This document shows, piece by piece, positions 43,532-60,879 of a DNA stretch of 64,000 nt. A program made the translations under genes and the position numbers. Origin of the DNA: Candidatus Binatia bacterium (GTDB taxonomy: Bacteria > Desulfobacterota > Binatia > HRBIN30); NCBI GenBank assembly GCA_038245295.1, contig JBBRSP010000002.1:256001-320000 (forward strand), in the 5' to 3' direction. Under the pieces are notes generated by a model. The model saw only the letters and a list, made by a program, of their open reading frames with translations. It had not been told where the DNA came from and made no database searches. Numbering within the stretch: the stretch's first letter is position 1; each line of letters opens with the position of its first letter.

Positions 43532-44505
43532 GCGTTTATCCTCCCTGTCTTTGTTCGATTACGAATCGGACGCCGCGCGGTGGCGGCGAACAAACCTGGT
43601 CCTTTGACATGTGTGGCGGGCGGCAACGGCTGGACGCGAACGCGCTCGAAGCCGGTGCTGCCAAGCCAATCCTCTACCTGTGCCGGCGTGAAGCCGAGCC
43701 AGATGTGACCCATCTGTTGCCGGTACTCGCGGCGATCGTGTTGCAGCATGTCGATGATCAAGAGCCGGCCACCGGGCTGCAGCACGCGCAGCAGTTCGGT
43801 GAACGCGGCCGCTGGGTCTTGGACGTGATGCAACACCAGGCAGCTGACGGCAGCGTCGAGCGTGTCATCTTCGATGGGCAACGCTTCCAGACGACCCTGC
43901 CGTACCTCGACGTTGCCGATGCTCGACAAGCTCTGCCGCGCCGCCTTCAGCATGGCGCGCGAGCTGTCGACGGCGATCACCTGGTGCACGAACGGCGCGA
44001 CGGTCTGAGCGATCTGGCCGGTGCCGCAGCCGAGGTCACCGATCACCCACGTGTCTTCGAGCAATCCGGCAAGGGCCATCAAATCGAAGCGCTCGCCGAA
44101 CATGTCGCGCCGCAACTTGTCCCACTGCCCTGCTGCCGTGCTGAAGAATGCTTGCGAACGCGTTTGCCGCGCCGCGAGAATCGCCGCGAGGCGCTGGTCA
44201 TCGTGTGCCGCGATGCGTGTTTGTCCGGTCTGCTCGCGCATCAACGCCCACAAGCGTCGGGCGGCCGCGTCCAGATCTTCCAGCGGCATTCGATACAGCC
44301 GGCTGGTACCTTCGGGGCGTGCGGCGACCCAGCCTTCATCCGCCAACAGCTTGAGATGTCGACTCACCGTCGACTGCGGCAACTGCAGAACGCCACACAG
44401 GTCGGCGACACTGAGCTCCTCGTGCTCGATGACGCGCAGGAGACGCGCTCGCGTCAGATCCGCGAGAGCATTCATCCAATGAACGATGGGGGGCGTTGCT
44501 TCCAT
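43528..44505 (-). CDS. sahR: ArsR-HTH + SAM-binding methyltransferase-fold regulator (SahR type)
   Basis: [23 protein letters not shown] plus DLGCGTG; ATGA-coupled to ahcY. Confidence 0.85.
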
Positions 44506-44520
44506 CCGTAAATCCGGATG
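44503..44520. promoter_or_regulatory. Candidate SahR operator overlapping its own start codon
   Basis: Palindrome CATCCG-N6-CGGATG. Confidence 0.45.
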
Positions 44521-44573
44521 TAGGGATATATGGATGCCACGTCGGCGTCAAGGATGGAAACGCAATGCGCCGA

Positions 44574-44641
44574 CCCCGTGCCCGTGCCCCGCCGCTCGTT
44601 GCTCTGGTTCCACCTTGGATCGGGCAAGGGCAAGGGCAAGC
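44574..44641. repeat. GGGCAA/GGGCAC hexamer repeat, copy 3 (inverted arrangement)
   Basis: cccgtgcccgtgccc ... cgggcaagggcaagggcaag. Confidence 0.7.
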
Positions 44642-44789
44642 GAACCACCGCGGCTCCGAGTCATGCGGGCAGAATCGAGAGGCTCTGGTCGAAGCGTTGA
44701 CAGGGGGAAGTACGGGCTGGGCGTTGAGCCGCAGGATCCTCTCGTGGTGAAGGAGATGCATCACATACTGTGGGCCATGGCCGCTCTCA

Positions 44790-45893
44790 TCAGTGTGCCG
44801 TTGGCGGCGTCAGCACCTGCTCGTAGGCCAGGGTAACCTGTCGCCATGAGTAGAGCGCCTGAGTACGACAGCGCGCCGCCGCGCCAAGCTCAGCGTGAAA
44901 GCCGTTCAGCACGGCCTCAAGCTGCTGGCTAAGACTGCGAGGATCGTTGAACGCGTAGTACAAGACGGCATCGCCGCCGACTTCGCGATGCTCTGGAGTA
45001 TCATTTGCGATCACCACCAGGCCGGCGCCCATGGCCTCGACGAGGGCCGGGTGTGTTCCGCCGACTTCGGTTGCCTGGACATAACACGCCGCGTGCCTCT
45101 GCAGCTCTCGGTACCCCTCGCCAAACACGAAACCGGCAAATAGGATTCGTGGATCGCCACCCGCCGCTTCGAGCAACTCACGCTTGTACTGATCCGCATA
45201 CGGTGCGTCACCGACGATCACCAATTTGAACGACGTCTCGACGTTGCGAAACGCACGGATCACCACCTCGGCATTATTCTCGGGTTCTAACCGGCTGACG
45301 TAGAGAACGTATCGGCCTGGCTCGAGCCCGAAGCGATCGACTGCGTCGCGCGTCGCACACGACTCGGTGCGCGCACCATAGGCAATCATGACTGAATCGA
45401 CCCCGTAGATGTCCCGGTAGTAGGTGCGGATGACCTCGGCGTCGGCGATCACGACGTCGGCCAACTTGGTGGCGAGCCATTCGCCCGCTCGGTAGTAGGC
45501 GCGGCCGGCAGCGCTCCACTTCTTGCGACGCCGTTCGATGCCGTCGACATTGATGACAACCCGTGCGCCAGCCAGGCGCGGCAACAGCGCAAACATGCTG
45601 TTGGCAGCGTTGCAGATGAGAACGGCGTCATAGCGGCGCCACAAACAGTCGATGGCGCTCAGGGCGCTGTGCATCACTGTGTCGAGGTACTTCGAGCGGA
45701 TCGTGCGCAAGACCCGCAGGCGCACACCGCGGTAGCTCGTGCCATGCAGACGTGGATCAACATGATGGGCGCGGCAGTACACCGTAACGTCATGGCCGCG
45801 CGCTGCCAGCCGACTTCCCAACTCCTCGGCCAACGTCTCGAACCCGCCGTAGCTGGCGGGAATACCGCGCGTACCTAGGATCGCCAGCTTCAT
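44790..45893 (-). CDS. GT4 glycosyltransferase (DUF1972 N-terminus)
   Basis: ILGTRGIPASYGGFET, NVDGIE..R.KW, SRLEPENN, VGGTHPALVEAM. Confidence 0.9.
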   Translation of the reverse strand: MKLAILGTRGIPASYGGFETLAEELGSRLAARGHDVTVYCRAHHVDPRLHGTSYRGVRLRVLRTIRSKYLDTVMHSALSAIDCLWRRYDAVLICNAANSMFALLPRLAGARVVINVDGIERRRKKWSAAGRAYYRAGEWLATKLADVVIADAEVIRTYYRDIYGVDSVMIAYGARTESCATRDAVDRFGLEPGRYVLYVSRLEPENNAEVVIRAFRNVETSFKLVIVGDAPYADQYKRELLEAAGGDPRILFAGFVFGEGYRELQRHAACYVQATEVGGTHPALVEAMGAGLVVIANDTPEHREVGGDAVLYYAFNDPRSLSQQLEAVLNGFHAELGAAARCRTQALYSWRQVTLAYEQVLTPPTAH

Positions 45894-45923
45894 TGTCCCG
45901 CCGCGATAGCCTCGCGCCGACGA

Positions 45924-47021
45924 CTATCGCAAGCGCCTCGACACAGTCAGTAGGCGGCGGGGCACCTGCAGCGCAGCCCCGATCAGGCTCGAAGAGCCCC
46001 AGCTTGTAGCCACTGCGGTGCCGAAAGCCGGCAAGGCTCGATAGCCGGCCCGGCGCCGCGCTTCGAACCAACATTGCGCCACGTTCGGTGTGACTCCCCA
46101 GTGCGAATTGCCGGCTCGATACCATAGCTCTCGAGCTTCACTCGTGCCGAGCCCAGGAGTCATGACCGCCGCAGCCTTGCTGACGTCGATGACAGGGCAG
46201 GTATCTCGTAGAACCCGTAAGGCCGTTGCCAGCAGTCCGCCAAACCGCCCCTGACGCGCCGTGCGCTGGACTTTCTCCCAGTCGATGCCGTCAGCATGGG
46301 GGCCGCGCAGAACGGCGCTGAGATCGGTAAGCCAGCGCAGGCCCGGGGTGCGATTCGACCACATTCCGTCGAGCACGATACGCATCAGCTCCGTCGAAGC
46401 AGCCGACACCTGTACCACCATCGACGCGAACTCAACGGCGAAACCGTCGGCTGTGTCGGTTGGCTTCCAAGGCAGACCCCATGCCAGAATGATCGGATTG
46501 CCTTCGCGATCACAAAAACGCAGCGACGTGAGCCGTTCAACGTGGGCGCGGCGCAAGCGAATGGGTGCCGCAAATCCCGCACCACTCAGGGTGGCAAATG
46601 CGTCGAGCGCCTGGCCAACCTCTACCCGCACGACGCTATCATCGATCAAGCGCGCGCCGAGGTCGGGAGCATGCGTCAGACTGATTGCCACCCCACCCGA
46701 CAGGGAAACATTGATCCCGGCGTCGCGCAGCAGCTCCACACATGACGACAGCCGGCGCAACGCGAGCTGATTGTGCGACCAATTGTAGCGATGCAGCCCC
46801 TTGAGCCGACCGAGCGACGCATCCGCCACCCCCTGGCGAATCAGGTTACGATAGACCCACGGCAGTAGATGGCGCGTCGCGGCGTCGACGTCGTCGATGC
46901 GATTCGCCCTGCTCCAGGCCTCCCACGCGTTGGCGGCTTGTTCGCCGGGCAGCGTCGCTGCAGCGAACAACTCACACTGGGCTGAGGTCGGCACTAGCCG
47001 ACCCAGATTCAGCTCATCCAT
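45924..47021 (-). CDS. Nucleotidyltransferase-family paralogue with degenerate active site
   Basis: Colinear with the neighbouring gene (LLP..Y, L..AGI.V, RW..D, DW), but LKG reads LSG and RxxxDxD reads RLIDDSV. Confidence 0.7.
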   Translation of the reverse strand: MDELNLGRLVPTSAQCELFAAATLPGEQAANAWEAWSRANRIDDVDAATRHLLPWVYRNLIRQGVADASLGRLKGLHRYNWSHNQLALRRLSSCVELLRDAGINVSLSGGVAISLTHAPDLGARLIDDSVVRVEVGQALDAFATLSGAGFAAPIRLRRAHVERLTSLRFCDREGNPIILAWGLPWKPTDTADGFAVEFASMVVQVSAASTELMRIVLDGMWSNRTPGLRWLTDLSAVLRGPHADGIDWEKVQRTARQGRFGGLLATALRVLRDTCPVIDVSKAAAVMTPGLGTSEARELWYRAGNSHWGVTPNVAQCWFEARRRAGYRALPAFGTAVATSWGSSSLIGAALQVPRRLLTVSRRLR

Positions 47022-47097
47022 GGATGGCCCACGGCCTTGCGAAGCCCACCCTTGGGCGGGCTCAGGACGAGAGGAAGGCTGCGCACCGACGAGAGCC

Positions 47098-48210
47098 TCA
47101 CATGGCAGCCCGGCGTCGACGCAGGGCGCGGCTCAAGATGGACCATAGGGTATCAGCTTCGGAGCGATCGAGAACATAGCGCCGGAAGCCGGCGACGCGC
47201 TCCAGCCATGAGCGGTCGGCGGCCAAGCGCCACCAGTTGAACCAGTAGCCGTGAAAATCACCGACGTAGCGACTACGCGGCAGCGTCGTGCGGACATAGT
47301 GTTCGAGGTGCTCCATTGGCGCAATTTTCACGGCGTCGAGTCGCGCCAGGACGGCACCCGGCACGGCAACTCCGACGTTCTTCCAGAGCCAGCGCAAGGC
47401 GTCGCGCATTGGGAGTACCAGGCGTAGCTGCTCGGTGGTCGCCAGCATACGCTGCCAGTCAAACGTTGCTGCATCACCGATGATGGCGTGCGCATCGCAT
47501 ACCCAGCGCAGGGGAGGTAGCTCACTCCATTTCACTCCGTGGACGATCACATGCAACAACATGTCGGCCGGATGCAGCCCCCACAAATGGCCTTCGTAAC
47601 CAGGTAGCGGGTGCACAGCCTGCCACAGCTCGTTTTCGCTGCCGGGCTGGCAGGTCTCGGGTAACAGATGCCAATGCAAGTCGATCGCGCGGTGCTGGGG
47701 ATCACTGAAGTTCATCGAGTTCATCGTGCGCAAGCGACGCGCCGATAGCTCGAACTCCGCAACCCAGCCCTGTCGTCGTACCGCCTCCACGGCGCGCGCC
47801 GCATCACCTTCGGGCACGAGCACATCGATGTCGCTCATAGGGCGCACCCCGGCGTCCTTGTAATACTCGATCACCAACGCTGCGCCTTTGAGGATTGCTA
47901 CCCGCACGCCCGCGTCGTGCAGCAGGCCGGCGACAACTTTGAGGTCGCGCAAGTGCATTTGCGTTTCGGCCCAGGTGCGGCGGTAGTGTTGCTTGATGGT
48001 ATCGTGCCAGAGGGGCTCCAGCAGCTCGGGCCGCCGCCGATAGATCAGCGGCAACAGACGCTCCGACGCCGGATCGAGCCCATCCAGATCAGCGCCGTGG
48101 TACCACTGTTGCCAGGCCAGAGCGCCGGGGGCCCCAGGCAGCAGCGCCGCGCGCAGCAGCAGAACTTGCCGTGGCATCGGCCAGCAGCCACCCGAGCTTT
48201 GACCCTTCAT
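47098..48210 (-). CDS. Nucleotidyltransferase family protein (NTP_transf_5-like)
   Basis: ILKGAAL..YY...GVRPMSDIDVLV, IDLHW, LLHVIVHG, RWVCD. Confidence 0.88.
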   Translation of the reverse strand: MKGQSSGGCWPMPRQVLLLRAALLPGAPGALAWQQWYHGADLDGLDPASERLLPLIYRRRPELLEPLWHDTIKQHYRRTWAETQMHLRDLKVVAGLLHDAGVRVAILKGAALVIEYYKDAGVRPMSDIDVLVPEGDAARAVEAVRRQGWVAEFELSARRLRTMNSMNFSDPQHRAIDLHWHLLPETCQPGSENELWQAVHPLPGYEGHLWGLHPADMLLHVIVHGVKWSELPPLRWVCDAHAIIGDAATFDWQRMLATTEQLRLVLPMRDALRWLWKNVGVAVPGAVLARLDAVKIAPMEHLEHYVRTTLPRSRYVGDFHGYWFNWWRLAADRSWLERVAGFRRYVLDRSEADTLWSILSRALRRRRAAM

Positions 48211-48301
48211 TGCTTACGTATGACGCAGGCCCGACAGTCCGTGCAAGGTCTCGTTCGGCTTGACCCTGCCGCCGGTTCGATGGACTATTGCGTCCATCGT
48301 T

Positions 48302-49165
48302 ATGATCTCGGTTGTCACGCTACATCTTGAACGCGAACTTCATACGAGTAGATTTGTGGATCGACTCTATGAACACACGCGAATCCCGTTTGAGCTCATC
48401 CTCGTCAGTCAGGGGTCCGAGCCGCCGACCGTCGAATGGCTCAACCTCCTCCGTAAGGACCGGCCCAACTTTCACGTGATTCTCAACGATCGTAACGTCG
48501 GCACGGCGGTGGGCCGCAACCGGGGAATTCTTGCCGCCCAGGGAGAGTACGTGGTTGTCGTCGACAATGACGTCGAATTCACCGAACAATGGCTCGAGCC
48601 ACTGCTTGAAACGGCTCGCAACGATGAGTCGGTTGCATGCGTCGGTGCCATGATCCTGACACCGCAGGGGCGTCCACAATATTGCTCGCATTACACGGTG
48701 GAGCGCCAGCAAGCAGATGGGTTACGGTCGATCGGATTGCGCTTCGATCGTTGGTTCGCAGCAGACTCGCCGGAGATCGGCGCCGAGTGCGATGTCCCGT
48801 GGTATCCGACCACCTGCCTTCTGATACGGAAGGAGGCCTTCGACAGGGTTGGCGGGTTCGATGAGCGACTCTTTCTCGCTGAAGAAGACAAGGATTTGTG
48901 CCTGGCCTTGCGAAACTCCGGCTATCGCGTCGTCTTCAATCCGAGGTCACGCGTGGTTCACAATGGCTACCCTCGCGATCCTGGCTACGCCAAGCTCCGC
49001 GAGAACCTGCCGCTTCTGCATCGCGACAAGCGCTACTTCGAGCAGAAATGGTCCTGCGGCGTCATCAACGAATCATCGCGCACGTACCTGCTACAGAGCG
49101 GTATCTCGGAAGAGAGGCTGCAACAGTATGAGAAGTTCCCTCTCTTTATGAAGGTCGTCCCCTAA
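48302..49165 (+). CDS. GT2 glycosyltransferase
   Basis: NVGTAVGRNRG, VDND, GGFDE, EDKDLC. Confidence 0.88.
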   Translation: MISVVTLHLERELHTSRFVDRLYEHTRIPFELILVSQGSEPPTVEWLNLLRKDRPNFHVILNDRNVGTAVGRNRGILAAQGEYVVVVDNDVEFTEQWLEPLLETARNDESVACVGAMILTPQGRPQYCSHYTVERQQADGLRSIGLRFDRWFAADSPEIGAECDVPWYPTTCLLIRKEAFDRVGGFDERLFLAEEDKDLCLALRNSGYRVVFNPRSRVVHNGYPRDPGYAKLRENLPLLHRDKRYFEQKWSCGVINESSRTYLLQSGISEERLQQYEKFPLFMKVVP

Positions 49166-49167
49166 CG

Positions 49168-50196
49168 ATGCCGATGCACACCGAATTCAAGTGGAACAGG
49201 CTGCCCCGACCGCGGCAGTTGATCCTCACCGTGACGGATCGCTGCAATCACTTCTGCGACATGTGCTACTACCACGCGTCGCTCAACAAGAAGACCCAAC
49301 TGCTGTCCCTGGCCGAGTACGAGCGGCTCTCAGATCAACTGCAGCAGGTCGAGCTCCTGCTGATCTCGGGCGGTGAGCCGTTCCTGCGCAAGGATGTCAC
49401 CGAGATCATCGAGATTTTCTATCGCAACAACGGCACGCGCACCGTGTTCATTCCGTCAAACGGCTCGATGCCGGCGGAGATCTTCAAGGTTGTAAGAGCG
49501 ATGCTCAGTTGCATGCCGGAGTTGCAGCTCACCTTGATGATGTCTCTGGAGGGTCGGCGCGACGAGCACGACCGGATCCACGGCAAACTTGGTGCCTTCG
49601 ACTCGGTTATCGAGACGATTCGCCGGCTGACCGTGCTGCGTGTGCACCGCCACTTGCACCGCAAGCCACCACTTGGGGTGCTGCTCAACACGGTCGTCTC
49701 GAATCAGAACGTCGACCGCATCCTGCCACTGATGAGCTACGTCAAAGACCACGTGCCCGTCAGCTCACACACGTTCTCACCCATGCGTGGAGCGGGGCCG
49801 GTGGCGAGTTGCACGACGCCCTCGGCGGCACAGTTCGAGGCGCTCGTGCGCGACGCACAACCCTACTTCGAGCACTACCTTCAAAAGCAACCCGCCGCGA
49901 TGAAGGCCACCCTGGAGCGCTACGCATTGTGGATGGACCTGATCGGCGGCAAGGGCTTGCCGCATCAATGCCAGGCCGGGAATTACATCGGCGTCATCGA
50001 GCCAGACGGACGAGTTCGCCTCTGCGAGCTGACTCCGGTGATCGGTAACCTGCGCGAAGCCGACTTCGATTTCGAGAAGGTTTGGACATCGCCCGAGGCC
50101 AACGCGCTACGCCAGCAGATCATCAATTGTTCGTGCACCCACGCCTGCTTCATCAACGCGAGCCAGAAGTACTACTCCCTCAAGCTCGATGCGTGA
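49168..50196 (+). CDS. Radical SAM protein with SPASM/twitch-like C-terminal domain
   Basis: CNHFCDMC, SGGEPFLR, HD.IHG..GAF, CQAG...DG.V.LCE...GNL...CSC..AC. Confidence 0.9.
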   Translation: MPMHTEFKWNRLPRPRQLILTVTDRCNHFCDMCYYHASLNKKTQLLSLAEYERLSDQLQQVELLLISGGEPFLRKDVTEIIEIFYRNNGTRTVFIPSNGSMPAEIFKVVRAMLSCMPELQLTLMMSLEGRRDEHDRIHGKLGAFDSVIETIRRLTVLRVHRHLHRKPPLGVLLNTVVSNQNVDRILPLMSYVKDHVPVSSHTFSPMRGAGPVASCTTPSAAQFEALVRDAQPYFEHYLQKQPAAMKATLERYALWMDLIGGKGLPHQCQAGNYIGVIEPDGRVRLCELTPVIGNLREADFDFEKVWTSPEANALRQQIINCSCTHACFINASQKYYSLKLDA

Positions 50197-51268
50197 ACCC
50201 GAGTACGATCTTCGCAACCGTCGAGCTCACGTTGGTGGCGAGGTACTCGGCCGGCGGAGTCCACGCCGGGGGCTGAGCCAACGCCAGCCGCACGGCGTCG
50301 ACGATCGCACCGGGGTCGGCACCACTGAGGATGCTGCTGCCGGCTTCGACGGTTTCCGGCCGTTCAGTAACGTCGCGTAAGGTCACGTTGGGGACCTGGA
50401 ACAGGCAGCACTCTTCCTGCACCGTCCCCGAGTCGGAAAGCACGCAGCGGGCGTTTTGCTCGAGGCGGACGAAGTCAAACAGCCCGAGGGGCGAGACAGT
50501 CCGCACACCATCGGTGAATGCCTGGCCTTGCCTCAAGAGCTGCCCACGGGTGCGCGGATGTAAGCTGCAGACGATCGGCAGATCGTGCTCCGCAAGCAAA
50601 CGAGCCAAGCCGTCGATGAAACCAGCCAGGCGAAGCGGCACGTCGACGTTCTCGGCGCGATGCAGGGTCACCAGGAAGTAGCCGCCAGGCTCGAGCCCCA
50701 ACCGCCCCAAGATCGTGCTGGCGGCAATCTCTGCAGCATGATGAACCAGCACTTCATGGATTGGATTACCGACGACGAAAATGCGATCCGCGGCGCAGCC
50801 TTCGCGCAACAGGTTGGCGCGGCTGCGTTCGGTGTAGGGCAGCAAGACGTCGCTACAGTGGTCGATCACACGGCGATTGACCTCTTCGGGAACCCTATCA
50901 TCGTAGCAGCGATTGCCGGCCTCCATGTGGAAGACAGGAATTCCCATGCGCTTGGCGACCAGCGCGCAAAGCCCGCTATTGGTATCGCCCAGGATGAGGA
51001 GCCGATCCGGTTGCTCTTCCTGAAACAGACCCTCGCAAGCGCAGAGAATCTTGCCAATCTGCTCCATCGGCGTCGCCGAACGGCAATCGAGCTGGTGATC
51101 CGGGCGGCGCAACCGCAGCTCGTCGAAGAAGACATCGTGCAACGGGGGCTCGAAGTTCTGCCCGGTGTGGACGAGCACGTGGCGGCAGTGCTGATCCAGT
51201 AACGGCAGGATGCGGCTCAGACGGATGATCTCCGGCCGGGTACCGAGCACCGTCACAACCTTCATCAT
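50180..51268 (-). CDS. Non-hydrolysing UDP-sugar 2-epimerase (FnlC/WbjD-like)
   Basis: GTRPEIIRL, HTGQN, LGDTNS, HMEAGNRCYD.RVPEE.NR, SDSGTVQEE, TERPE. Confidence 0.9.
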   Translation of the reverse strand: MMKVVTVLGTRPEIIRLSRILPLLDQHCRHVLVHTGQNFEPPLHDVFFDELRLRRPDHQLDCRSATPMEQIGKILCACEGLFQEEQPDRLLILGDTNSGLCALVAKRMGIPVFHMEAGNRCYDDRVPEEVNRRVIDHCSDVLLPYTERSRANLLREGCAADRIFVVGNPIHEVLVHHAAEIAASTILGRLGLEPGGYFLVTLHRAENVDVPLRLAGFIDGLARLLAEHDLPIVCSLHPRTRGQLLRQGQAFTDGVRTVSPLGLFDFVRLEQNARCVLSDSGTVQEECCLFQVPNVTLRDVTERPETVEAGSSILSGADPGAIVDAVRLALAQPPAWTPPAEYLATNVSSTVAKIVLGFTHRA

Positions 51269-52326
51269 CGTAGGAGCTCCATCGGGTCAGGGACGGCGGC
51301 ACCGGTGAGAAGCCCGTGGCGTGTCAGCATTTGCCGCGTCTCTTCGAGGCTCATCGGCGCATCGTGTGAGCTGTATTCGCCGCCGAGCGCTAGACCTGGG
51401 CATTCGCGGCTCAGCTCGGGCAACAATGGTTGAATCGCCAGGTAGTCACCACGCACGAAGGTGCGAACGCCCTCCTCGGACGAGACCAGCAGCTCATGAA
51501 CCTTCTCGCCCGGACGAATCCCGGTGAACGTCAACGGGATATTGCGGTCGCCAATCAAGACGTGCGCCACGTCGAGGATGCGCGCCGACGGCACTCTGGG
51601 CACAAAGATCTCGCCGGCGGCGGCGTGCTCCACGGCGGCGACGATCGTGTCGACGGCGCATTCGAGGGGCAACAGGAAGCGCGTCATCTCCGCGGTGGTT
51701 ACCGTCAGCGGGCCACCGTCGCGGATCTGCTCGTGGAACAAGGGAATCACCGAGCCCCGAGACGCCAACACGTTGCCGTAGCGCACGCAGACAAAACGCG
51801 TCGTCGCAACCGTGATATTGGCGGTAATCAAGACCCGCTCTTGCAGTGCCTTGGTCATGCCCATCACATTGACCGGCTTACACGCTTTGTCGGTCGACAC
51901 TCCGACGACCACCGCGACGGGCCAATCATGCTCGCGGATGGCGCGCACGAGATTCTCAGCGCCACGCACGTTGGTTTCCACCGCCTCGAATGGGAAGTAC
52001 TCGCAGGCCGGAACCTGCTTGAGGGCCGCAGCATTGACCACCACATCGGCATGCCTGAGCACCGCACACACCGAGGCATAGTCACGGATATCACCGATGC
52101 GGAATTCCAGGACGCGCTCGAAGTTTTGGTAGATGGCCTCGTCGGTCACTGCCCGTCGATGCTGCAGCTCCAGACGCATGAGGTGCTGCTTCGCCTCGTC
52201 GCGCGAGAAGATGATCACCTTCCTCGGCCGGCCATGCGTGCCGCCGAGAAGCCGGCGCGCCAGAACCTTGCCCAACGAGCCGGTGCCGCCGGTGATCACC
52301 ACTGTCTTGTTTTCAAATAGCGACAT
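51265..52326 (-). CDS. UDP-GlcNAc 4,6-dehydratase/5-epimerase (FnlA/WbjB-like)
   Basis: TGGTGSLG, SRDEAKQ, AAALKQVP.CE, STDKAC.PVNVMGMTK, RYGNVLASRGSVIP, GIRPGEK.HE. Confidence 0.9.
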   Translation of the reverse strand: MSLFENKTVVITGGTGSLGKVLARRLLGGTHGRPRKVIIFSRDEAKQHLMRLELQHRRAVTDEAIYQNFERVLEFRIGDIRDYASVCAVLRHADVVVNAAALKQVPACEYFPFEAVETNVRGAENLVRAIREHDWPVAVVVGVSTDKACKPVNVMGMTKALQERVLITANITVATTRFVCVRYGNVLASRGSVIPLFHEQIRDGGPLTVTTAEMTRFLLPLECAVDTIVAAVEHAAAGEIFVPRVPSARILDVAHVLIGDRNIPLTFTGIRPGEKVHELLVSSEEGVRTFVRGDYLAIQPLLPELSRECPGLALGGEYSSHDAPMSLEETRQMLTRHGLLTGAAVPDPMELLR

Positions 52327-53236
52327 GCGCCTCCGCGGCAGACGTGAACTGCCGGCGCGGATAACGCGCTGCTGCGTCGGTCAACATCGCATCGATCAGT
52401 CGCGGCCACGGCGGCGGGCTGTAACCCGTGGCCGTGTTAAACCTGGTAGCGTCCAACGACCTGTCGATCGCCGGCCCGGGGGCAGCCATAATATCGATGC
52501 GTTTGCCGTAACGGTCGGCAATTAGTCGCAGCAGATCGAGTTTGGAGATCGGCTCGGCAGCGACGTGGTAAATTCCAACCAGGCCTGGGCTCGGGAGGAT
52601 GTGCTGGCTCAGTATGTGAGCGATCTCGACGGTGGGCAGACCCGAAAAGACGGAGCGGCGAAAGCCATCGACGCTTCCGCGGCACCCGAGGAACCACTCC
52701 AGGAGACCGTGGTTGGTATGCAGCTCATGACCAATGATCGAGGTTCGCAGCGTCAGGGCGCCGCCGTCCATGGGTTCGCCGAGGAGCTTGGAGCACCCGT
52801 AGCGGTCGGCCGGATCGGCAACGTCGGCCTCGCTGTAGTGACCCCTCGCGCCGGAAAATACGCAGTCGGTGCTGAAGTGAATCAAACGAATCCCGTGGCC
52901 GCTGCAGTGCTGCGCCAGGCGGTGCGGTAGAAGGGCGTTCGCCGTAATGAGCGCAAGCGGATCGTTGGCAGACCGCAGTTGCTTCACCATACCGATGCAG
53001 TTGATCAGTACGTCGGGGCGGACGCCGTCGAGTAGCTGCCGCATCGAGTCCTGGTCAGCGGCGTCCACGCCAGCATGGATGCGCGTCTGGAACGCCGGCG
53101 CGACGCGTTCCAAAAGGGCTTCCGGGCGGCGCAAGGCGGCGTGCGTCTCCAGTGCCGGCAGGCGCGATAGGATTTCGAACAACGTATGGCCCAACATGCC
53201 GGTGGCGCCGAGGATCAAGATCTTGGGAGTGCTCAT
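52313..53236 (-). CDS. RmlD-like NDP-4-keto-6-deoxysugar reductase (WbvR/QnlA-like)
   Basis: LGATGMLG, INCIG.VKQ, STDCVFSG, YG.SK, RTSIIGHEL. Confidence 0.85.
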   Translation of the reverse strand: MSTPKILILGATGMLGHTLFEILSRLPALETHAALRRPEALLERVAPAFQTRIHAGVDAADQDSMRQLLDGVRPDVLINCIGMVKQLRSANDPLALITANALLPHRLAQHCSGHGIRLIHFSTDCVFSGARGHYSEADVADPADRYGCSKLLGEPMDGGALTLRTSIIGHELHTNHGLLEWFLGCRGSVDGFRRSVFSGLPTVEIAHILSQHILPSPGLVGIYHVAAEPISKLDLLRLIADRYGKRIDIMAAPGPAIDRSLDATRFNTATGYSPPPWPRLIDAMLTDAAARYPRRQFTSAAEAHVAI

Positions 53237-53294
53237 TGGAAACCCACGGTCGCTACAGCCCAGCTGATGCGATTGTCAAGCCGCGGTGCCGGGC

Positions 53295-54107
53295 CTACCG
53301 CCTCAATACGCGTTTCTGCAGCCACTGAAACTTGCGCACGATGGGCAAAACGAAGTTGAGCAGCCCGCTTGGCGCCAGAGCGTGGGCATCATCGCGCGGC
53401 AGATAGCCTAGATCGGCGCGCGTCGTCGTGATGTCGAGTCGCTTCAAGCAATTGTCGGAAACGCCGTGGTAGATGCCGAAGCGGAGGTCGTCCGGGGCGG
53501 CGATGGCGGCGTCCAGCAAGCCGATGAGGTCGTCATAGGTAAGTACCATGTTCAAGTGCTCCCCCGCCGGGGAGCGCTGCACGTCCCTGCGGTCCAGCAC
53601 CATTCCCAAGCGCAAGCAAATCACCGACAAGTTGGTTTGGTGTGCGTAGAAGCTGGCGAGCGCTTCACCGCACGCCTTGCTGGCGCCGTAGAGGGTGCTC
53701 GGACGTACCGGCCAGGTTGGTTCGACCGCTACGTCCGCCGGATACCCATCGACCGCTTGAATGCTGCTGGTAAAGATCACACGCCCACATCCGACGTCGC
53801 AGGCCGCCTGGAAGAGATTGTAGAGGCCGATGATGTTACTGGCGAGCAATCCCTCCCATGGTGTGAGCATCCCCGCGGCGCCGAGATGAAGGATGATATC
53901 GATGCCCTGACAGAGCTCGCGCGCCCGGGCCGCGTCGGCGAGGTCAGCTTGAACGAAGGGGAATCCATGGGTTTCGAGCAGCGGATTCACGTCGGTCAGC
54001 AGGAGGTCGTATCGCTCGGCATAGGCCGCGGCTACGACTCGGCCAAGGCGGCCCGACGCCCCGGTCAGGAGCATGCTCGGTTTCACCGCAGGGCCGTTCG
54101 TACTCAT
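53295..54107 (-). CDS. NAD-dependent epimerase/dehydrogenase (uronate-dehydrogenase-like SDR)
   Basis: TGASGRLG, YGASK, GVSDN, LGY.PRD; start at ATGA overlap. Confidence 0.8.
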   Translation of the reverse strand: MSTNGPAVKPSMLLTGASGRLGRVVAAAYAERYDLLLTDVNPLLETHGFPFVQADLADAARARELCQGIDIILHLGAAGMLTPWEGLLASNIIGLYNLFQAACDVGCGRVIFTSSIQAVDGYPADVAVEPTWPVRPSTLYGASKACGEALASFYAHQTNLSVICLRLGMVLDRRDVQRSPAGEHLNMVLTYDDLIGLLDAAIAAPDDLRFGIYHGVSDNCLKRLDITTTRADLGYLPRDDAHALAPSGLLNFVLPIVRKFQWLQKRVLRR

Positions 54108-54853
54108 CGGCGCGGCAGGCTCGGCGGTGACACGACGTCGGCGGTTGTTGCGGCTTTGGCGTCGGTCGGTTGTTGGCGACGTCGCAGGAGAGCGGCACGG
54201 GCGATCCGGACGTAGTCCGTCTTGCTGTGGGATTCGCGCAGCGTCGTGTTGGCGCCATGGATTCTGCGGCGCAGCACGAGCTGCGGCAGGGTTGCGGTTC
54301 GCAGTCCCTGATCGAGTGCTCTCGCCTGCCAATCAATGAACTCGCCGATCCGCAAGCCGGGGTCGAAGAGACCGATGCGCGAGAACGAGGCGCGACGAAT
54401 CAACATCGCCGGTTTCATTTGAACCCTCAGCAGGCCTGCCGGGCACACCAGTTTTCGTCGACTCTCTGCATCGAGCTCTGGGCTGAGGAAGCACTCAACG
54501 GCGCCGAAGACGGCCTCGAGTTCGGGGTTGGCCTCAAGAACCGCCATCTGCAGAGTCAACTTTTCTGAAGTCCAAAGATCGTCGGCATCCAGGAAGGCGA
54601 GACACTCGCCGCGGGAGAGCTCAATGCCGTGATTCACCGCGGTGCTGATACCGCCATGAGGTTGGTAGTCGTAGCGCACTGCTGATCCAAACCCGCGTAC
54701 GACCTCGGCCGTGCGATCCGTGGATCCATCGTCGACCACGATGATGTCGAGCCGGCGATACGACTGTGCCAACACGCTGTCCAACGCTGCGCCGAGATAA
54801 CGGTCGGCGTTATAAGCAGGGATGACGACGCTAATGAGCAATGGTTCGCGCAT
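54104..54853 (-). CDS. GT2 glycosyltransferase
   Basis: ISVVIPAYN, VVDDGSTD, FLDADD, RRIH. Confidence 0.92.
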   Translation of the reverse strand: MREPLLISVVIPAYNADRYLGAALDSVLAQSYRRLDIIVVDDGSTDRTAEVVRGFGSAVRYDYQPHGGISTAVNHGIELSRGECLAFLDADDLWTSEKLTLQMAVLEANPELEAVFGAVECFLSPELDAESRRKLVCPAGLLRVQMKPAMLIRRASFSRIGLFDPGLRIGEFIDWQARALDQGLRTATLPQLVLRRRIHGANTTLRESHSKTDYVRIARAALLRRRQQPTDAKAATTADVVSPPSLPRR

Positions 54854-54856
54854 GAA

Positions 54857-55912
54857 TCAGGTTCCAGATAAGAACGCCCGGATCACCCGCGGGATTTGCT
54901 CCACCTCTGTTCCCACCTCGAGGCGATAACACGCTACCCGTCGCAGCAAGGCGCCGATCATCCGGAAGGCCGCTGGCGCCACTGCCGCCACTTGAAAGAT
55001 GTTACTCGGGATCAGCGCCTTAACGCCTGCCGTCGCCGAAGTAGGCTGCAGTCTCGTGTCGCGGCGTCCGGTCACGCATGGTAACAGGACCGCATGGATG
55101 GGCAGGTGGCCGACAATCTGTCCCTTCCAGACGTCGTGCAGAAGGAACAACGCTTTCTCACCGGCCTCTCGTTCGGGGTTACGCACATGTGGGAGAAAGA
55201 CCGGCAATAGCCGCAGACTGTCGTCGGTCAACTTTCCCGAACTGAACAGGCTCGACGCCTGAGGCGATGGCAAGGGCGAGAACAGGCAATAGTCGTCGCT
55301 GACGTACTTCATACCAGCGGCGAGGCAGGCAAGAGCGGATGTCGACTTACCCGCTCCACCGCCGCCTGCCAACAACACACCTCCCTCCGGTGTGCCGACA
55401 ACGCCGGCGTGCAGGACTTGCTGCCCGCGGACACAGACTAGACCTTGCAGGAAGAGCACAAATGGCGAGCCCCTCTCGGCCGCCGAAAGCCGATCTGGGT
55501 CGGCGACCCAGTAGAAACCAAGCCTTCGCGACATGTCCAATACGCTAAGCGTGTCGGTCGCTGCATTGAATACCACGGTGAAGGTTCCATCGCCGGCAGA
55601 AAACCCCTGCGCCAGCGAGAACCCGGCAGGAAACCACGACGACGGTGCGACGCGCAACCGGGAAGAAACGCTATCCCAAAGGCAGATCGTCAGATCCGGT
55701 GTCGACGCCAGGGTCGGTCGTGCAAGGTGCGCCAACGCCGGGGTAAGATGCGGGATCAGCGCGGTAGTGGCGAATTGCAGGCGGATATGGCTTCCGCCCA
55801 CTATGTAGTCGCGATTGGTGGGAGCGCCGGAAGACTTTGTCGCCTGTTGGAAAAGCTCGTGGGTTTCGGCGAGCAGCGTCCCGGAAAGATGCTTCTGGCT
55901 GTCCCTCTCCAT
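54857..55912 (-). CDS. HPr-kinase-like P-loop kinase (lasso-peptide kinase type)
   Basis: LHAG.V....GVLLAGGGGAGKSTS and YVSDD motifs; start uncertain (55912 or 55978). Confidence 0.85.
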   Translation of the reverse strand: MERDSQKHLSGTLLAETHELFQQATKSSGAPTNRDYIVGGSHIRLQFATTALIPHLTPALAHLARPTLASTPDLTICLWDSVSSRLRVAPSSWFPAGFSLAQGFSAGDGTFTVVFNAATDTLSVLDMSRRLGFYWVADPDRLSAAERGSPFVLFLQGLVCVRGQQVLHAGVVGTPEGGVLLAGGGGAGKSTSALACLAAGMKYVSDDYCLFSPLPSPQASSLFSSGKLTDDSLRLLPVFLPHVRNPEREAGEKALFLLHDVWKGQIVGHLPIHAVLLPCVTGRRDTRLQPTSATAGVKALIPSNIFQVAAVAPAAFRMIGALLRRVACYRLEVGTEVEQIPRVIRAFLSGT

Positions 55913-55956
55913 AGTGCGGTGTTCCCGAACTGCGGCCAAATTGATGGGCGAACGAT

Positions 55957-56433
55957 CTAACTCTTGGACTTCGGCCAACCGGAATCGTCGACCTCATGAA
56001 TCGGATCGAGCAGAAGCAACTCCTGCATATCGGTGTACTTCTGCAACGTCGGAATCTCGAACGGTCGCTTGGCGGTCGTCTGGCGTGGTGCGGCAGCGTC
56101 GGGCGACGTGGCCGCACCACCTTCGTCTGCGTCTGTGGCTACGAGCACGATGCCTTCCCGTTCCAGTTCGCTGAGAAATGTGGAGGCCGCTTGCGCCATG
56201 GCAGCGCCATCACCTTCGAAGTGCTCGGCGAGGGCAGCCTCAATCTGGCGGCTCGTTGCCCCGTGCTCAACCGCACCGCAGATCGTCGCGCCGGTCGTGC
56301 CCAAACTGTAGTAGGTACCGCTTTCGAGATTGACGATGACCACTTCGTCCTCGAACGTTTCGAGGATGACCGTCGGGCTGTTCAATCGATAGCGGGACTG
56401 AGGAATTATTTGAGCCACCGTCTGCGAAACCAT
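55957..56433 (-). CDS. PqqD-family RiPP recognition element fused to a C-terminal leader/precursor-like peptide
   Basis: EVVIVNLESGTYYSL..TG..I...FLSELEREGIV (RRE), Ala/Asp linker, then KRPFEIPTLQKYTDMQELLLLDPIHEVDDSGWPKSKS. Confidence 0.85.
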   Translation of the reverse strand: MVSQTVAQIIPQSRYRLNSPTVILETFEDEVVIVNLESGTYYSLGTTGATICGAVEHGATSRQIEAALAEHFEGDGAAMAQAASTFLSELEREGIVLVATDADEGGAATSPDAAAPRQTTAKRPFEIPTLQKYTDMQELLLLDPIHEVDDSGWPKSKS

Positions 56434-56468
56434 GATCAGCGGCTAGGTGAAGCCCCGAGTGATGTCAA

Positions 56469-57596
56469 TCAGACTTGGCTTCGCGCAGACTTGGCGTCGC
56501 GGACACGCGCATACGCTCGCTCGTACATGCCGATCACCTGCGGCTGGATCACGGAATACTCCAGTCGCTCGCCGGTCGTCCGCATGTTGATCGCGGCCGC
56601 CCCATCGACCATGGCATCATCGGCTACGGCGCGCCGGATCGCTTCGGCGACTTGAGCCGGGTCATCCGGATCGACGAACAGAGCGGATTCTCCATCGGTC
56701 GCCCATTCATCCACACAGGCGGTCGGCGATTGGATGGGGAAGGCTCCCATCATCATGGCCTCCAGAAAGCTGTGGCTGATGCCATCACTGATCGAAAGGC
56801 CGATGGATACTCTGGCCCGGCCTTGCAGGGCGATCATCTTGTTGTGAGGCAGAAAGCGCGGCATCTCGACGTGCAGCCCGGTGTCGTTGGCCAGCAGCTC
56901 AGCGGCAATTCGTACATCCTGTCCGCCGGCCAGATAGACCACGATGCGGTAGCCCGGCAGCGCATCGGCGCACATCCGTAGGGCCTTGAGTCCCACCAGC
57001 GCCCGCCCGGCCCAACTCTGATAGCCTCTCAGCAGAATCATCCGGCGGGCGGACGTCGGGCCCGGCGGACAGAGGGCCTGCAGCTCTCGCACTCGATAGC
57101 CACCGCCCATGGGAACGACCGGCAACACGTCACCGGCGAACCCGCCGGAACGCGCCAGGGGTATGTCCCGATCACACTCGCAAACGTAGAATTGGCAGCC
57201 ACGCATCACCGCCTCGATGCGCGGGCGATGCTCCTTCAACCGCCCAAACAGGAAAAGGTCGCTGCCCCAGTTGCTGACGATCCACACGGGAAAGGCACCC
57301 GGCTCGAGGATGTCGCGGGCCGCCTGCGTCAGGTACCCGGCATGCTGGATTTCGAGCGAGTGAATGAAGTCGGGACGTATGACCTGAATGACAGCCGCCA
57401 GTCGTCGCGCCCGTTCACGCCAGGGTAACGACTGAGGTCCGCCCTCGTGAAGCGTAATGCTCGGCAACTGGCGCGCCTCCGGCGACAGTTCGTCCTCCAC
57501 AGGAAATACGTGCAGATCCCAGCCCAGCCCTTGCAACTGACTGATCCAGCGCTGAGTGTGGACGCTATTGGCCATCGCCACGAAGAGGATTTTCAT
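56469..57596 (-). CDS. GT4-like glycosyltransferase
   Basis: S.HT.RW, WGSD, SDG...SFLEAM..GAFPIQS; start at ATGA overlap. Confidence 0.85.
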   Translation of the reverse strand: MKILFVAMANSVHTQRWISQLQGLGWDLHVFPVEDELSPEARQLPSITLHEGGPQSLPWRERARRLAAVIQVIRPDFIHSLEIQHAGYLTQAARDILEPGAFPVWIVSNWGSDLFLFGRLKEHRPRIEAVMRGCQFYVCECDRDIPLARSGGFAGDVLPVVPMGGGYRVRELQALCPPGPTSARRMILLRGYQSWAGRALVGLKALRMCADALPGYRIVVYLAGGQDVRIAAELLANDTGLHVEMPRFLPHNKMIALQGRARVSIGLSISDGISHSFLEAMMMGAFPIQSPTACVDEWATDGESALFVDPDDPAQVAEAIRRAVADDAMVDGAAAINMRTTGERLEYSVIQPQVIGMYERAYARVRDAKSARSQV

Positions 57597-58348
57597 GGCG
57601 CCACAACGAATGGCCACGCCCCTCCGGAAGCCCGATAGGCAGACCGGCCGGCACGCGCATTCGCCAATTTACGGATGAGCAGGCGCTGCGACTCCTCGAT
57701 GGCCGCGCAATCGGAGAAATGTGGATGGCGCAGATGGTGACCGACGACCCGCTCCGTGTAAACGGGGGATAAGCCCAGGCCTTGCGTCAGGCAGAGTGCA
57801 AACCACACGTCCTCGCTGCAGGGGCGCTCGAACTCCTCGTCGTTACCACCGGCGGCGTACAGATCTCGGCGCCACAGGCTGCCCAGGAAGAACAGCGGCC
57901 GCGGGCGCAGCGGGCCGGTATAGGTCATCAGGCCGCTGCCGACGCCAGCGTCGGGCTCGCAACACGGGTTGCCCTGCTCATCGGTGTTGATCACCGTGGC
58001 GATCAAGAAACACCCCGTCTGCAGATCCGTGACCAGGCGTTCGATAGCGTCCGGGCCTGCGTGCACGACGTCGTCGCTTTGACAAATGACCACATCACCT
58101 CGCGCCCGGCGGTAGGAAGCGTTGCGTGCCTTCGCCGGGTTGCGGTAGGAGGCGTCGGTTCGTTGCATCGAGTGGTAGATGACCGGGTAGCGGCGGCAGA
58201 CGCGGGCCGTTTCCTGATTGTTGCCGTCGTCAGCGACGATCACCTCGAAGTCGAAGCCTGGCTGCTGACAAAAGATGCTCTGGAGCACCCTATTCAGGTG
58301 GTCGGGCTTATCGTGCGTCGCCAGGCAAATGGAGCACGTCACCGGCAC
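57593..58348 (-). CDS. GT2 glycosyltransferase
   Basis: EVIVADDG, ARN, SDD, GG.DE.F...ED. Confidence 0.85.
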   Translation of the reverse strand: MPVTCSICLATHDKPDHLNRVLQSIFCQQPGFDFEVIVADDGNNQETARVCRRYPVIYHSMQRTDASYRNPAKARNASYRRARGDVVICQSDDVVHAGPDAIERLVTDLQTGCFLIATVINTDEQGNPCCEPDAGVGSGLMTYTGPLRPRPLFFLGSLWRRDLYAAGGNDEEFERPCSEDVWFALCLTQGLGLSPVYTERVVGHHLRHPHFSDCAAIEESQRLLIRKLANARAGRSAYRASGGAWPFVVAP

Positions 58349-58432
58349 TTTCTCCGCACGCAGCAGGCTATCATGTGCGACGGCCGCGTGTCAGCCGAGC
58401 CAGGCCAGATGTTCTGCGACGCCACGTACACT

Positions 58433-59896
58433 TCAGTACGCCCCACGCCCGCGCAGCACGGCGCCGAGCGTGCGGACGAGGATCATGGCATCCATCCACA
58501 ACGACCAGTTGCGCACGTAGTACTCATCAAGCAGAACACGTTGTTCGAATGGCAGCTCATTGCGGCCGCTGACTTGCCATAAACCCGTCAGCCCCGGCCG
58601 CGCCCGCAATACCGTGTCGGCCGCTGCCCCCATACGATCCAGCTCGGCACCGAGGTAGGGGCGCGGGCCGACCAGACTCATCTCTCCCTTGATGACGTTC
58701 CAGAGCTGCGGCAGCTCGTCGAGGCTCCAGCGGCGCAAGACTCGTCCACTACGTGTGAGACGGGGATCATCCACTTTCAGCTTGGCGAACTGCGCCCAGT
58801 CGCGGTTGGCTTGCTCGTCGTTGGCCAGATGCGCCGTGAGCGACGCGTCGCTGCCGATACGCATCGTGCGCAGCTTCATACAAACGAACTCGCGGCGGCG
58901 GCGACCGAGGCGCGTCTGCCCGTAGAAAGCCGGGCCAGGTGAATCGAGGCGAATCGCCACGGCGAGAACCGCGACGATCGGCGCGACGATGGCGCCGATC
59001 GTCAGGCTCAAGGATACATCGAAGGCTCTCTTGATGGCGGAATTCCAAGGCTTCGCGAGGTTGCGCCGCAGGTGCAGGAGGAGTGTGCCGTTGACGTCCT
59101 CGGCCTCCACGCCAACCGTCGCCAAACCGACCAGATCAGGGACCAGTCGGATACTCTCGATCAGCCCTTCGCACGATTCGATCAGCCGCAACAGGCGTTG
59201 GCGCGGCAGTTGCGGGCTGGCAATCACCAGGTCCTTCACGCCGAGCGCGACGATATGAGCCGGCAATTCGTCGAGCGGACCGACAATCGGGATTCCATTG
59301 ATTTGCTGACCTATCAAAAGCGCGTCGTCGTCGATAAAGGCCGCCGTTTCGTAGCCAAGTACGCGGTCCGCCGTCAGATGTTGATAGACATCGCGACCGG
59401 TGGACCCGGCGCCGACGATGACGATGCGCTTGCGCAGCCAACCGGCACGCGCCAGCAGGCGTTTGGTCACCTGGCGCGCCAGCGGTATCAGCACCAACGA
59501 TGACAACCATGTCAAACCGATGACGACCCGCGACAGAGCCAGCTCAGGACGACCGGCGTAAGAAAGGACGATACTGAGAGCGGCACCAAAGGAAGTCGCG
59601 CGTATGCAGAGGCGCACGTCATCCCAGGCGCTCAGGCGGCGCGTGTAGAGGCCGCGTTGCGCGAAGGCAAAGGTCCACGGGAGAAAAAAGTATTGCCCGT
59701 AGAGGAAAGTCGAAAGCGGATCGACGGGCCCGATGCCCGGCGACAGACCTTCTAGGAGCTTAGCGCGCAGCAGCCACGCCAGTGTGACACAAACGAGAAG
59801 TGCCACCCAATCCGTGAGTAGCAAGCTGGCCACCGCAGCGGCCCGGCGCAACAGATCGGCGGCTGCGCCGCTTGATGACTGGCGCACAGAGCTCAC
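58433..59896 (-). CDS. wbaP: Undecaprenyl-phosphate sugar phosphotransferase (WbaP/WcaJ family)
   Basis: TM domain, IVGAG, KRAFD, KLRTM, DPRLT, SLDELPQLWNV, MSLVGPRP, PGLTGLWQVSGR. Confidence 0.92.
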   Translation of the reverse strand: MSSVRQSSSGAAADLLRRAAAVASLLLTDWVALLVCVTLAWLLRAKLLEGLSPGIGPVDPLSTFLYGQYFFLPWTFAFAQRGLYTRRLSAWDDVRLCIRATSFGAALSIVLSYAGRPELALSRVVIGLTWLSSLVLIPLARQVTKRLLARAGWLRKRIVIVGAGSTGRDVYQHLTADRVLGYETAAFIDDDALLIGQQINGIPIVGPLDELPAHIVALGVKDLVIASPQLPRQRLLRLIESCEGLIESIRLVPDLVGLATVGVEAEDVNGTLLLHLRRNLAKPWNSAIKRAFDVSLSLTIGAIVAPIVAVLAVAIRLDSPGPAFYGQTRLGRRRREFVCMKLRTMRIGSDASLTAHLANDEQANRDWAQFAKLKVDDPRLTRSGRVLRRWSLDELPQLWNVIKGEMSLVGPRPYLGAELDRMGAAADTVLRARPGLTGLWQVSGRNELPFEQRVLLDEYYVRNWSLWMDAMILVRTLGAVLRGRGAY

Positions 59897-60556: not shown

Positions 60557-60775
60557 TCATTGTCCCTGTACGAGCGACAGAGGGCTCAATACGGTCCCCA
60601 GGATCGGGGTATGTTGCAGATCGCCGCCGGTCAGCACCTTGACCAGCGCGAAGACTGCCGCCGCCGCAGCAGCCTCCAAACCGACGGCGATCACTGCCAG
60701 CGGGATGCACCAGTACCCCAGGCGCCGATTCGGTGCGGGCAACAACGCGACGCACTGGCGTAGCGCCGCGAACAT
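60557..60775 (-). pseudogene. Probable N-terminal remnant of an ABC exporter permease
   Basis: MFAALRQCVALLP...RR...LAVIAVGLEAAA..AVFALVKVL resembles the first TM helices of MsbA-like exporters; stops after 72 aa. Confidence 0.45.
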
Positions 60776-60879
60776 GCACGTATCGGTGTTGCTGCTCATC
60801 AGCCGGGAAGAACAACACCCCGCGCCGAATGTTGCAAGCAGATGGCGACGATTCGCCAAGCATGGCATGAGAGTGCCCC

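Follow-up and report, generated by a model that had tools for sequence, protein, structure and literature searches.

A 64,000-nucleotide stretch of the genome of a Candidatus Binatia bacterium (assembly GCA_038245295.1, 96.6% complete; contig JBBRSP010000002.1, forward-strand positions 256,001 to 320,000; hereafter the window) holds, between its positions 45924 and 56433, a group of genes resembling the tailoring enzymes for ribosomally made, post-translationally modified peptides (RiPPs), interspersed with polysaccharide genes. As judged from sequence and gene neighbourhood, the true unit is a portable cassette, here placed inside a polysaccharide locus, and not the WbaP locus itself. It comprises a RiPP recognition element (RRE) protein with a fused precursor-like tail, an HprK-like kinase, small family 2 glycosyltransferases (GT2s), a PF14907 nucleotidyltransferase and, often, an ATP-binding cassette (ABC) exporter. 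What is new here is that the aligned tails of three subfamilies have no conserved Ser, Thr or Tyr column but share an invariant aspartate, Asp143 of the window protein. The reading ranked first, at somewhat less than an even chance, is that the tail is a carrier modified on Asp143, which the kinase would activate, after which the nucleotidyltransferase with an intact DxD motif and the GT2s would build a glycan and the product would be handed on. The core genes and features of the cassette in the window are as follows:

55957–56433, minus strand: RRE gene, encoding a PqqD fold (residues 14–99; PF05402, 41 bits, over the cut-off), a flexible linker (100–124) and the fused precursor-like tail (125–154)
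55972–56061, minus strand: the tail, F125 to P154, with a leader-like F-x-x-P-x-L-x-x-Y-x-D-M followed by L-D-P-I-H and G-W-P, as given by alignments and column counts
56005–56007, minus strand: Asp143, the one reactive side chain that never varies within the tail, 18 residues past its aromatic anchor
54857–55912, minus strand: HprK/PEPCK-fold kinase with H168, K189, D206 and D207 intact; alternative TTG start at 55978
54104–54853, minus strand: small GT2 of the cassette type, DxD intact
47098–48210, minus strand: PF14907 nucleotidyltransferase-fold protein (127 bits), DxD intact
45924–47021, minus strand: PF14907 paralog (46 bits), D-x-V in place of D-x-D

A search with the RRE protein yielded 410 relatives among 672 candidates, and 111 of the 120 listed were aligned, nine being omitted as long or near-duplicate. 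Tails were sampled from three subfamilies totalling 409 proteins: 266 in A, 23 in B (the type to which this genome's second cassette belongs) and, in C, 120 out of 911 hits reached through relatives. Asp143 and Pro144 occur in all 409, His146 in 289 (it is missing from subfamily C) and a tyrosine at position 133 in 355. Conversely, no Ser, Thr or Tyr column is conserved across these proteins: position 134 is distributed mainly over T (218), R (118), S (42), D (12) and N (11), position 151 over T (120), S (60), D (60), A (46) and E (42), and 18 tails lack any S, T or Y between +9 and +33. The core Asp-Pro and a downstream Trp are retained in all three subfamilies. Selecting the RREs of cassette loci by a profile of the RRE alone gave 142 distinct proteins, 106 of them tailed, with Asp143 in 106 and Pro144 in 104 of these, Ala or Val replacing the proline in the remaining two. 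The lack of a conserved hydroxyl column argues against phosphorylation of a precursor Ser, which the original prediction had carried over from paeninodin-type clusters, or of a Thr. The tail has Leu or Ile at +15 and C-termini that vary freely, rather than the Thr(-2) and terminal Ser of the lasso type; the leader Thr(-2), peptidase and cyclase have been lost along with any conserved Ser. Subfamily C, with the pattern Y-E-x-P-x-L ... L-A-L-D-P-P, counts at least 911 proteins (loci L133–L138 and L142 among them), usually accompanied by several family 4 glycosyltransferase (GT4) genes, and one of its members comes from Candidatus Methylomirabilis.

That a leader is fused to the RRE, as had been proposed, is supported by the leader-like pattern of the tail. 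In a structural comparison the top fold matches of the RRE protein are lasso B1–leader complexes (5v1v, 5v1u and 6jx3). In the model of this protein the predicted local distance difference test score (pLDDT) is 86–96 for the RRE, 49 for the linker and 94 for residues 121–130, followed by a confident strand at residues 130–133. This strand, together with the B1–leader matches, leads to the prediction that the leader strand of the tail is bound in cis in the RRE cleft. The B1-type RRE fold is present, with a score of 39 bits against the 80-bit cut-off of NF033536. The tail is, on the strength of a shared leader pattern, a fused homologue of a precursor peptide, since a sister cluster (L190, contig G201:C15, 4995–11962) encodes six free precursors of the same leader pattern, which share Y-x-x-P-x-L-x-x-Y-x-D-L-x-D among themselves. 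In these precursors a Thr stands at +15 and a Ser at +20 to +23, and their cluster also includes a tail-less RRE, an HprK-like kinase, a PF14907 protein, a B2 peptidase, DUF362 and a B12 radical S-adenosylmethionine (SAM) protein, with no cyclase-like open reading frame (ORF) noticed in the 20 kb list, so that it is possibly another linear phosphorylated RiPP. Free-standing versions of the tail itself may exist but found little support: 41 of the top 150 tail-profile matches are shorter than 125 residues, but most of them start within leftover RRE helices or linker and, judged from the proteins without their neighbourhood, resemble genes that were truncated or called from too late a start.

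The composition of the cassette was established from genomes in the GTDB, where 554 of 599 pattern matches encode a relative and the best 80 loci were retained. Kinase genes are found in 73 of these 80, GT2 genes in 67, nucleotidyltransferases in 56 and ABC exporters in 24; relatives of the window's cassette-type GT2 are in 68. In the 49 loci with at least 8 kb downstream the corresponding numbers are 47, 47, 41 and 20, and all four core families occur together in 41; the window locus has no exporter. The kinase gene directly follows that of the RRE in 60 of the 80 loci, and is fused to a GT2 in seven; an apparent fusion of RRE-tail and kinase in L066 proved to be an artefact of overlapping frames. 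Of seven loci without a kinase five are cut short. A search from the kinase side through 301 genomes of the phylum (full-length matches, E <1e-70) returned five places including the window's own copy, all within 1.3 kb of a tailed RRE. WbaP, in contrast to these partners, occurs in one of the 80 loci (56 of which have at least 4 kb upstream), and the GT4s, other GT2s and radical SAM gene of the window are in none. Constant partners, rarity of WbaP and kinase matches lying beside tailed RREs together identify a portable cassette seated here in a polysaccharide locus. At 50% identity, 3068 clusters are hit by its tail profile. Carriers of the cassette include Cyanobacteria (Oscillatoria PCC 10802 and Planktothrix PCC 9631 among them), Chloroflexota, Acidobacteriota, Nitrospirota, Bacteroidota and members of other phyla.

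The asparagine-synthetase-like lasso cyclase is found in none of the 80 loci, nor in the window or the second cassette of the same genome, and the B2 peptidase PF13471 in one (L056), 9.5 kb away on the opposite strand and with its own RRE. Among ten loci taken from relatives, WbaP-like, WecB and asparagine-synthetase-like genes appear in one each, the last (L138) at a distance of 7 kb and without B2. Short ORFs bearing the leader motif are not enriched in the loci (126, against 137–153 in shuffles), and no SpI-like leader peptidase was found among the window genes or the 60 Pfam-scanned representatives of recurring neighbours, singletons not being scanned. The original prediction had described a cyclase-free module, built from the accessory set of paeninodin-type clusters, whose homologues would keep company with kinase, nucleotidyltransferase and glycosyltransferases; the neighbour table bears this out, and the opposite pattern, homologues routinely accompanied by cyclase or peptidase and a separate precursor, did not appear. 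Its statement that the window lacks a cyclase, B2 peptidase and free-standing precursor also holds, and the genome-wide search for lasso B2 and C genes that it had proposed gave nothing above the cut-off for PF13471, while its single strong hit to asparagine synthetase lies on a different contig.

Two further loci of the source genome are related to these findings. A second, divergent cassette (L001, contig G000:C59, 2247–7928) has no WbaP in the 12 kb covered and consists of an RRE-tail of subfamily B, a kinase, a GNT-I-like glycosyltransferase, a GT2, a GT4 and a nucleotidyltransferase interrupted by a TAG codon that is also seen in a contig of a second sample. A second locus combining RREs with glycosyltransferases (L002, contig G000:C9, 5430–13256) encodes two large PqqD-domain fusion proteins adjoining a PF11397 N-acetylglucosamine transferase, a 2-oxoglutarate-Fe(II) oxygenase and a weak O-fucosyltransferase match.

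The kinase displays the His-Lys-Asp-Asp motif and PEPCK/HPrK fold of HprK-like peptide kinases, its profile matches (PF07475, 20 bits; TIGR04352, 38 bits) being below their cut-offs. In a FastTree phylogeny of moderate support, kinases of tailed RREs stand apart from those of lasso or free-precursor clusters, and their clades track the three tail subfamilies. Binding of the RRE fusion to the kinase, another element of the earlier proposal, gains support from a model of the kinase with ATP, Mg and the RRE-tail, which scored 0.63 against 0.24 for the best of three controls; of 157 solved complexes 116 attain the mark set for this score, as do 2 of 215 mismatched pairs. These figures apply only roughly here, given the use of own alignments and the inclusion of ligands. 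Model runs share at least 58% of contacts, with partner pLDDT of at least 73. In the modelled interface, kinase helices 292–324 would pack against RRE residues 20–43 and tail residues Y133, D135 and M136; interface residues coincide with the most conserved surface columns, and this packing on the RRE sheet and leader strand would explain the near-invariance of E25, E30, Y41 and D135. Nevertheless, the RRE fold is common among solved structures and neither Asp143 nor the active site takes part in a confident contact, so that the model supports, but does not show, RRE–kinase binding.

Contrary to the original supposition of two working nucleotidyltransferases, only the protein encoded at 47098–48210 has the metal-binding DxD pair; its paralog at 45924–47021, 29% identical, lacks the second Asp and is probably inactive, though it may have a scaffolding role. 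In the first set of two-copy loci one intact and one degenerate copy were found in 11 of 11, but as a general rule this pairing failed in all four further two-copy loci (L119, L122, L134 and L136), where both are intact. The degenerate proteins are not a single clade, at least three changes being needed on a quick tree. Single-copy loci have an intact nucleotidyltransferase in 35 of 39 cases. In several loci with two copies, cyanobacterial for the most part (L008, L010, L011, L013, L040, L047 and L081), the cassette-type copy is degenerate and an intact copy of a lasso-B2-adjacent clade lies nearby. No solved structural relative of the nucleotidyltransferase was found by sequence, and Atlas returned only PF14907.

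The closest published system is that of the linear polyphosphorylated peptides (LPPs) of Bacillota (Popov et al. 2026, PMC13381572), in which a cyclase-free set of RRE, HprK and NTP-transferase inside polysaccharide loci was already described. The likeness extends to a discrete-type RRE, a kinase like HprK, an uncharacterised NTP transferase, glycosyltransferase-rich surroundings, the leader motif aromatic-x-x-P-x-hydrophobic and, in 20 of the 49 well-flanked loci but not in the window, an MsbA-like exporter. It also includes a model in which RRE sheet and leader pack on a helix of the partner enzyme, in LPP the peptidase, which is modelled against a surface of the same kind. However, LPP clusters have free precursors with Ser at +18 and Thr(-1) and a SpI-like peptidase, whereas in the cassette the peptide is fused to the RRE, Asp is at +18, no peptidase recurs, one to four dedicated small GT2s are present and many phyla are represented. 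From the paeninodin, pseudomycoidin and Bsf set (PadeK, ThcoK, PsmK, BsfK and PsmN; PMC6993621, PMC9266682, PMC10368454) the cassette shares the His-Lys-Asp-Asp motif of the kinase, a nucleotidyltransferase with two catalytic Asp residues and a B1-type RRE, but differs in its lack of recurring cyclase and B2, in having no Thr(-2), Gly(+1) or conserved Ser, and in its separate group of kinases. The fosfazinomycin system (FzmZ/T/U/F/K, PMC13622209) likewise employs an RRE, a nucleotidyltransferase and kinases, in its case to assemble a non-peptide product on a YxxP scaffold, but the scaffold is a free 22-residue peptide, an asparagine-synthetase-like enzyme is involved and no GT2s are described. 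Matches to the NCBIfam HprK-related kinase A/B and PqqD_rel_X families are weak and indicate non-members (TIGR04352 38/200, TIGR04355 26/200 and TIGR04353 26/35 bits versus cut-offs). The cassette thus resembles the tailoring half of paeninodin/pseudomycoidin clusters and the LPP system, but belongs to neither since it has no cyclase, peptidase, free precursor or Ser. No description of a fused RRE-tail cassette was found in the literature searched, which included the LPP supplements, PMC7470986 and PMC12710340, with subscription articles mostly outside the search.

Modification of the tail on Asp143 is ranked first because this residue is invariant, lies at the offset of a known phospho-acceptor, has beside it in the cassette a type of kinase able to act on phosphate, and is accompanied by a relative of PsmN. 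Asp143 is at +18 from F125, the anchor of the RRE-binding motif, an offset identical to that of the LPP phospho-Ser from the Tyr of YxxP (PMC13381572), while the phospho-Ser of BsfA is at +19 (PMC10368454). HprK-like peptide kinases are described as also phosphorylating phosphate, an anionic oxygen like that of a carboxylate, and PsmN, which shares with the window genes the annotation of uncharacterised NTP transferase, is required for addition of hexose to the phosphate and loses activity when its two Asp residues are changed (PMC6993621). According to the proposed mechanism, the RRE protein, with its leader strand bound in cis, would associate with the kinase. Phosphorylation of Asp143 by that kinase would follow, and the nucleotidyltransferase and GT2s would then assemble a sugar chain on this residue. 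The product would be an acyl-phosphate-linked (or ester- or amide-linked) glycan on a reusable, uncleaved carrier, to be transferred to a final acceptor and exported where an ABC gene is present. Asp143 would in this way replace the phospho-Ser of LPP-type precursors, and the neighbouring WbaP and nucleotide-sugar genes would lie outside the machine, although they may supply donors here. A proline following Asp would block aspartimide loss of the activated residue. The broader notion, that RiPP machinery has been turned into a protein-carrier glycan assembly line, in which an aspartyl phosphate would lead to a phosphate-linked glycan and lipid or nucleotide carriers would be dispensed with at that step, is more tentative than the reading of the tail as carrier.

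Several points weigh against this reading. Acyl phosphates are labile, and all chemical steps of the mechanism are ones that we infer. In the model a short helical turn comes right after the Asp143-Pro144 pair, the conservation of which could be structural; moreover, the locus sets were picked by similarity, and the 80 GTDB loci partly by a pattern containing L-D-P-I-H, which inflates conservation, particularly in subfamily A, although subfamily C and the relatives were chosen without that pattern. Two fully flanked loci (L028 and L071) have no nearby kinase; in five genomes whose loci lack one, a kinase was found elsewhere in three, but not in that of L071. The complex model places Asp143 in no confident contact with the active site and is uncertain for residues other than those named, and the control in which the kinase was replaced still had 52 confident contacts at a score of 0.24. 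Related precursors place their acceptor anywhere from +18 to about +23, so that the match in register is only suggestive, and the characterised HprK-like peptide kinases in the literature covered all act on Ser.

A less probable but substantial alternative gives the RRE-tail a lasting role as adaptor or activator subunit. As a leader–enzyme fusion of natural origin it would switch the kinase on through its bound leader, Asp143 would mimic phospho-Ser or serve in docking, and the target of the enzymes would be a small molecule, another protein or a lipid-linked glycan. The missing Ser/Thr acceptor and peptidase, the frequency of sugar-modifying neighbours and the MsbA-like exporter all suit this idea, as does the modelled kinase interface, which would use the leader strand and not the core. 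Engineered leader–enzyme fusions are constitutively active (PMC11002830), an RRE boosts BsfK (PMC10368454), and the substrate of the RRE-linked nucleotidyltransferase of fosfazinomycin is a small-molecule pyrophosphate that kinases from other families produce (PMC13622209), although the final acceptor in that pathway is still a scaffold peptide. For an activator, however, the leader alone would suffice, yet all three subfamilies retain the Asp-Pro of the core and a downstream Trp, so the adaptor fits the interface as well as the carrier does but explains the retained core less well. Phosphorylation of the tail on Thr134 or Ser151 followed by glycosylation, as in paeninodin, pseudomycoidin and LPP, appears improbable. 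The window protein does have T134, S151 and a C-terminal Ser, and a Thr or Ser occupies position 134 in 248 of the 266 tails of subfamily A, but both positions vary over the whole sample, as do the C-termini, some tails offer no hydroxyl in the relevant range, and kinases beside tails lacking a hydroxyl at 134 and 151 still keep His, Lys and Asp-Asp. Position 134 is moreover within the leader part, just ahead of the helix, and LppK rejects Thr and Tyr, substitution S3T or S3Y abolishing LPP phosphorylation (PMC13381572).

The original prediction that the module is built into, or regulates, the surrounding WbaP polysaccharide pathway draws on the close coupling of genes from WbaP to WecB, on the frequent location of LPP and paeninodin clusters in capsule loci, and on GT4 genes in 23 of the 80 loci. 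It is now judged quite unlikely, since WbaP, WecB and FnlA-like genes are each found in one of 80 loci and RmlD-like genes in none, the loci of relatives add a single WbaP-like and a single WecB gene, and the second cassette of the same genome has no WbaP in 12 kb. Still more doubtful is an orphan tailoring set serving a free precursor or lasso cluster encoded elsewhere. A PF13471 match over the cut-off does exist somewhere in 31 of 80 host genomes, and L056 and L138 have their B2 and asparagine-synthetase-like genes within 10 kb, but the other 49 host genomes (many incomplete) and the source genome have no such match, leader-motif ORFs show no excess, and occupancy of the RRE cleft in cis is predicted. 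Similarly remote is cleavage at the Asp-Pro bond, whereby activation of Asp143 would sever the tail and join the RRE portion to a glycan, thus standing in for the lost peptidase. Asp-Pro self-cleavage with glycan linkage is a feature of ITIH/mucin proteins and the pair is near-invariant here, but the proline is replaced in two locus tails and His146 is absent from subfamily C.

The cassette in the window is surrounded by genes of the local context:

53295–54107, minus strand: NAD-dependent epimerase/dehydrogenase, an occasional cassette member with relatives in 5 of 80 loci
50180–53236, minus strand: WecB-, FnlA/PseB- and RmlD-like nucleotide-sugar genes, found in 1, 1 and 0 of 80 loci
56469–59896, minus strand: GT4, GT2 and WbaP (TIGR03022, over the cut-off), found in 0, 0 and 1 of 80 loci
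48260–50196, plus strand: GT2 (48260–49165) and radical SAM/SPASM (49168–50196), not cassette members, found in 0 of 80 loci at E 1e-10

Profile matches place the RRE, HPr-kinase-like, two PF14907, GT2/GT4, nucleotide-sugar and wbaP genes on the minus strand, as first described, and the tight or overlapping junctions are real, with gaps from WbaP to WecB of 84, -25, 35, 44, 3, -4, 58, -14 and -4 bp. The co-orientation of the named genes therefore stands, but not a single operon, because the plus-strand pair, which overlaps the end of WecB by 17 bp, separates the two PF14907 genes from the RRE–kinase–GT2 block. Either the nucleotidyltransferase genes need a transcript of their own, or the pair is an insertion. 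This split arrangement is reproduced with zero differences by a single contig of run X1, possibly the source sample, that covers 44000–56968; scans for repeats and for promoters and terminators gave no signal above chance. Further along, at 60557–63603, possible gene remnants flank a pyruvyl transferase on the plus strand and a GT9, namely a short frame resembling the start of an exporter (60557–60889, no Pfam match) and another resembling a piece of a sulfotransferase (63241–63603).

Should Asp143 prove to be the acceptor, the chemistry of HprK-like kinases would be extended and a novel type of carrier for glycans recognized; should the RRE-tail instead be an adaptor, it would be a natural leader–enzyme fusion. 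The invariant Asp redirects the search for a product, which assays for phospho-Ser/Thr under acidic mass spectrometry conditions could miss. With the candidate substrate already joined to a small soluble protein, an in vitro system would need no more than four or five genes, and it could settle the role of PF14907 enzymes, PsmN, LppN and BsfN included.

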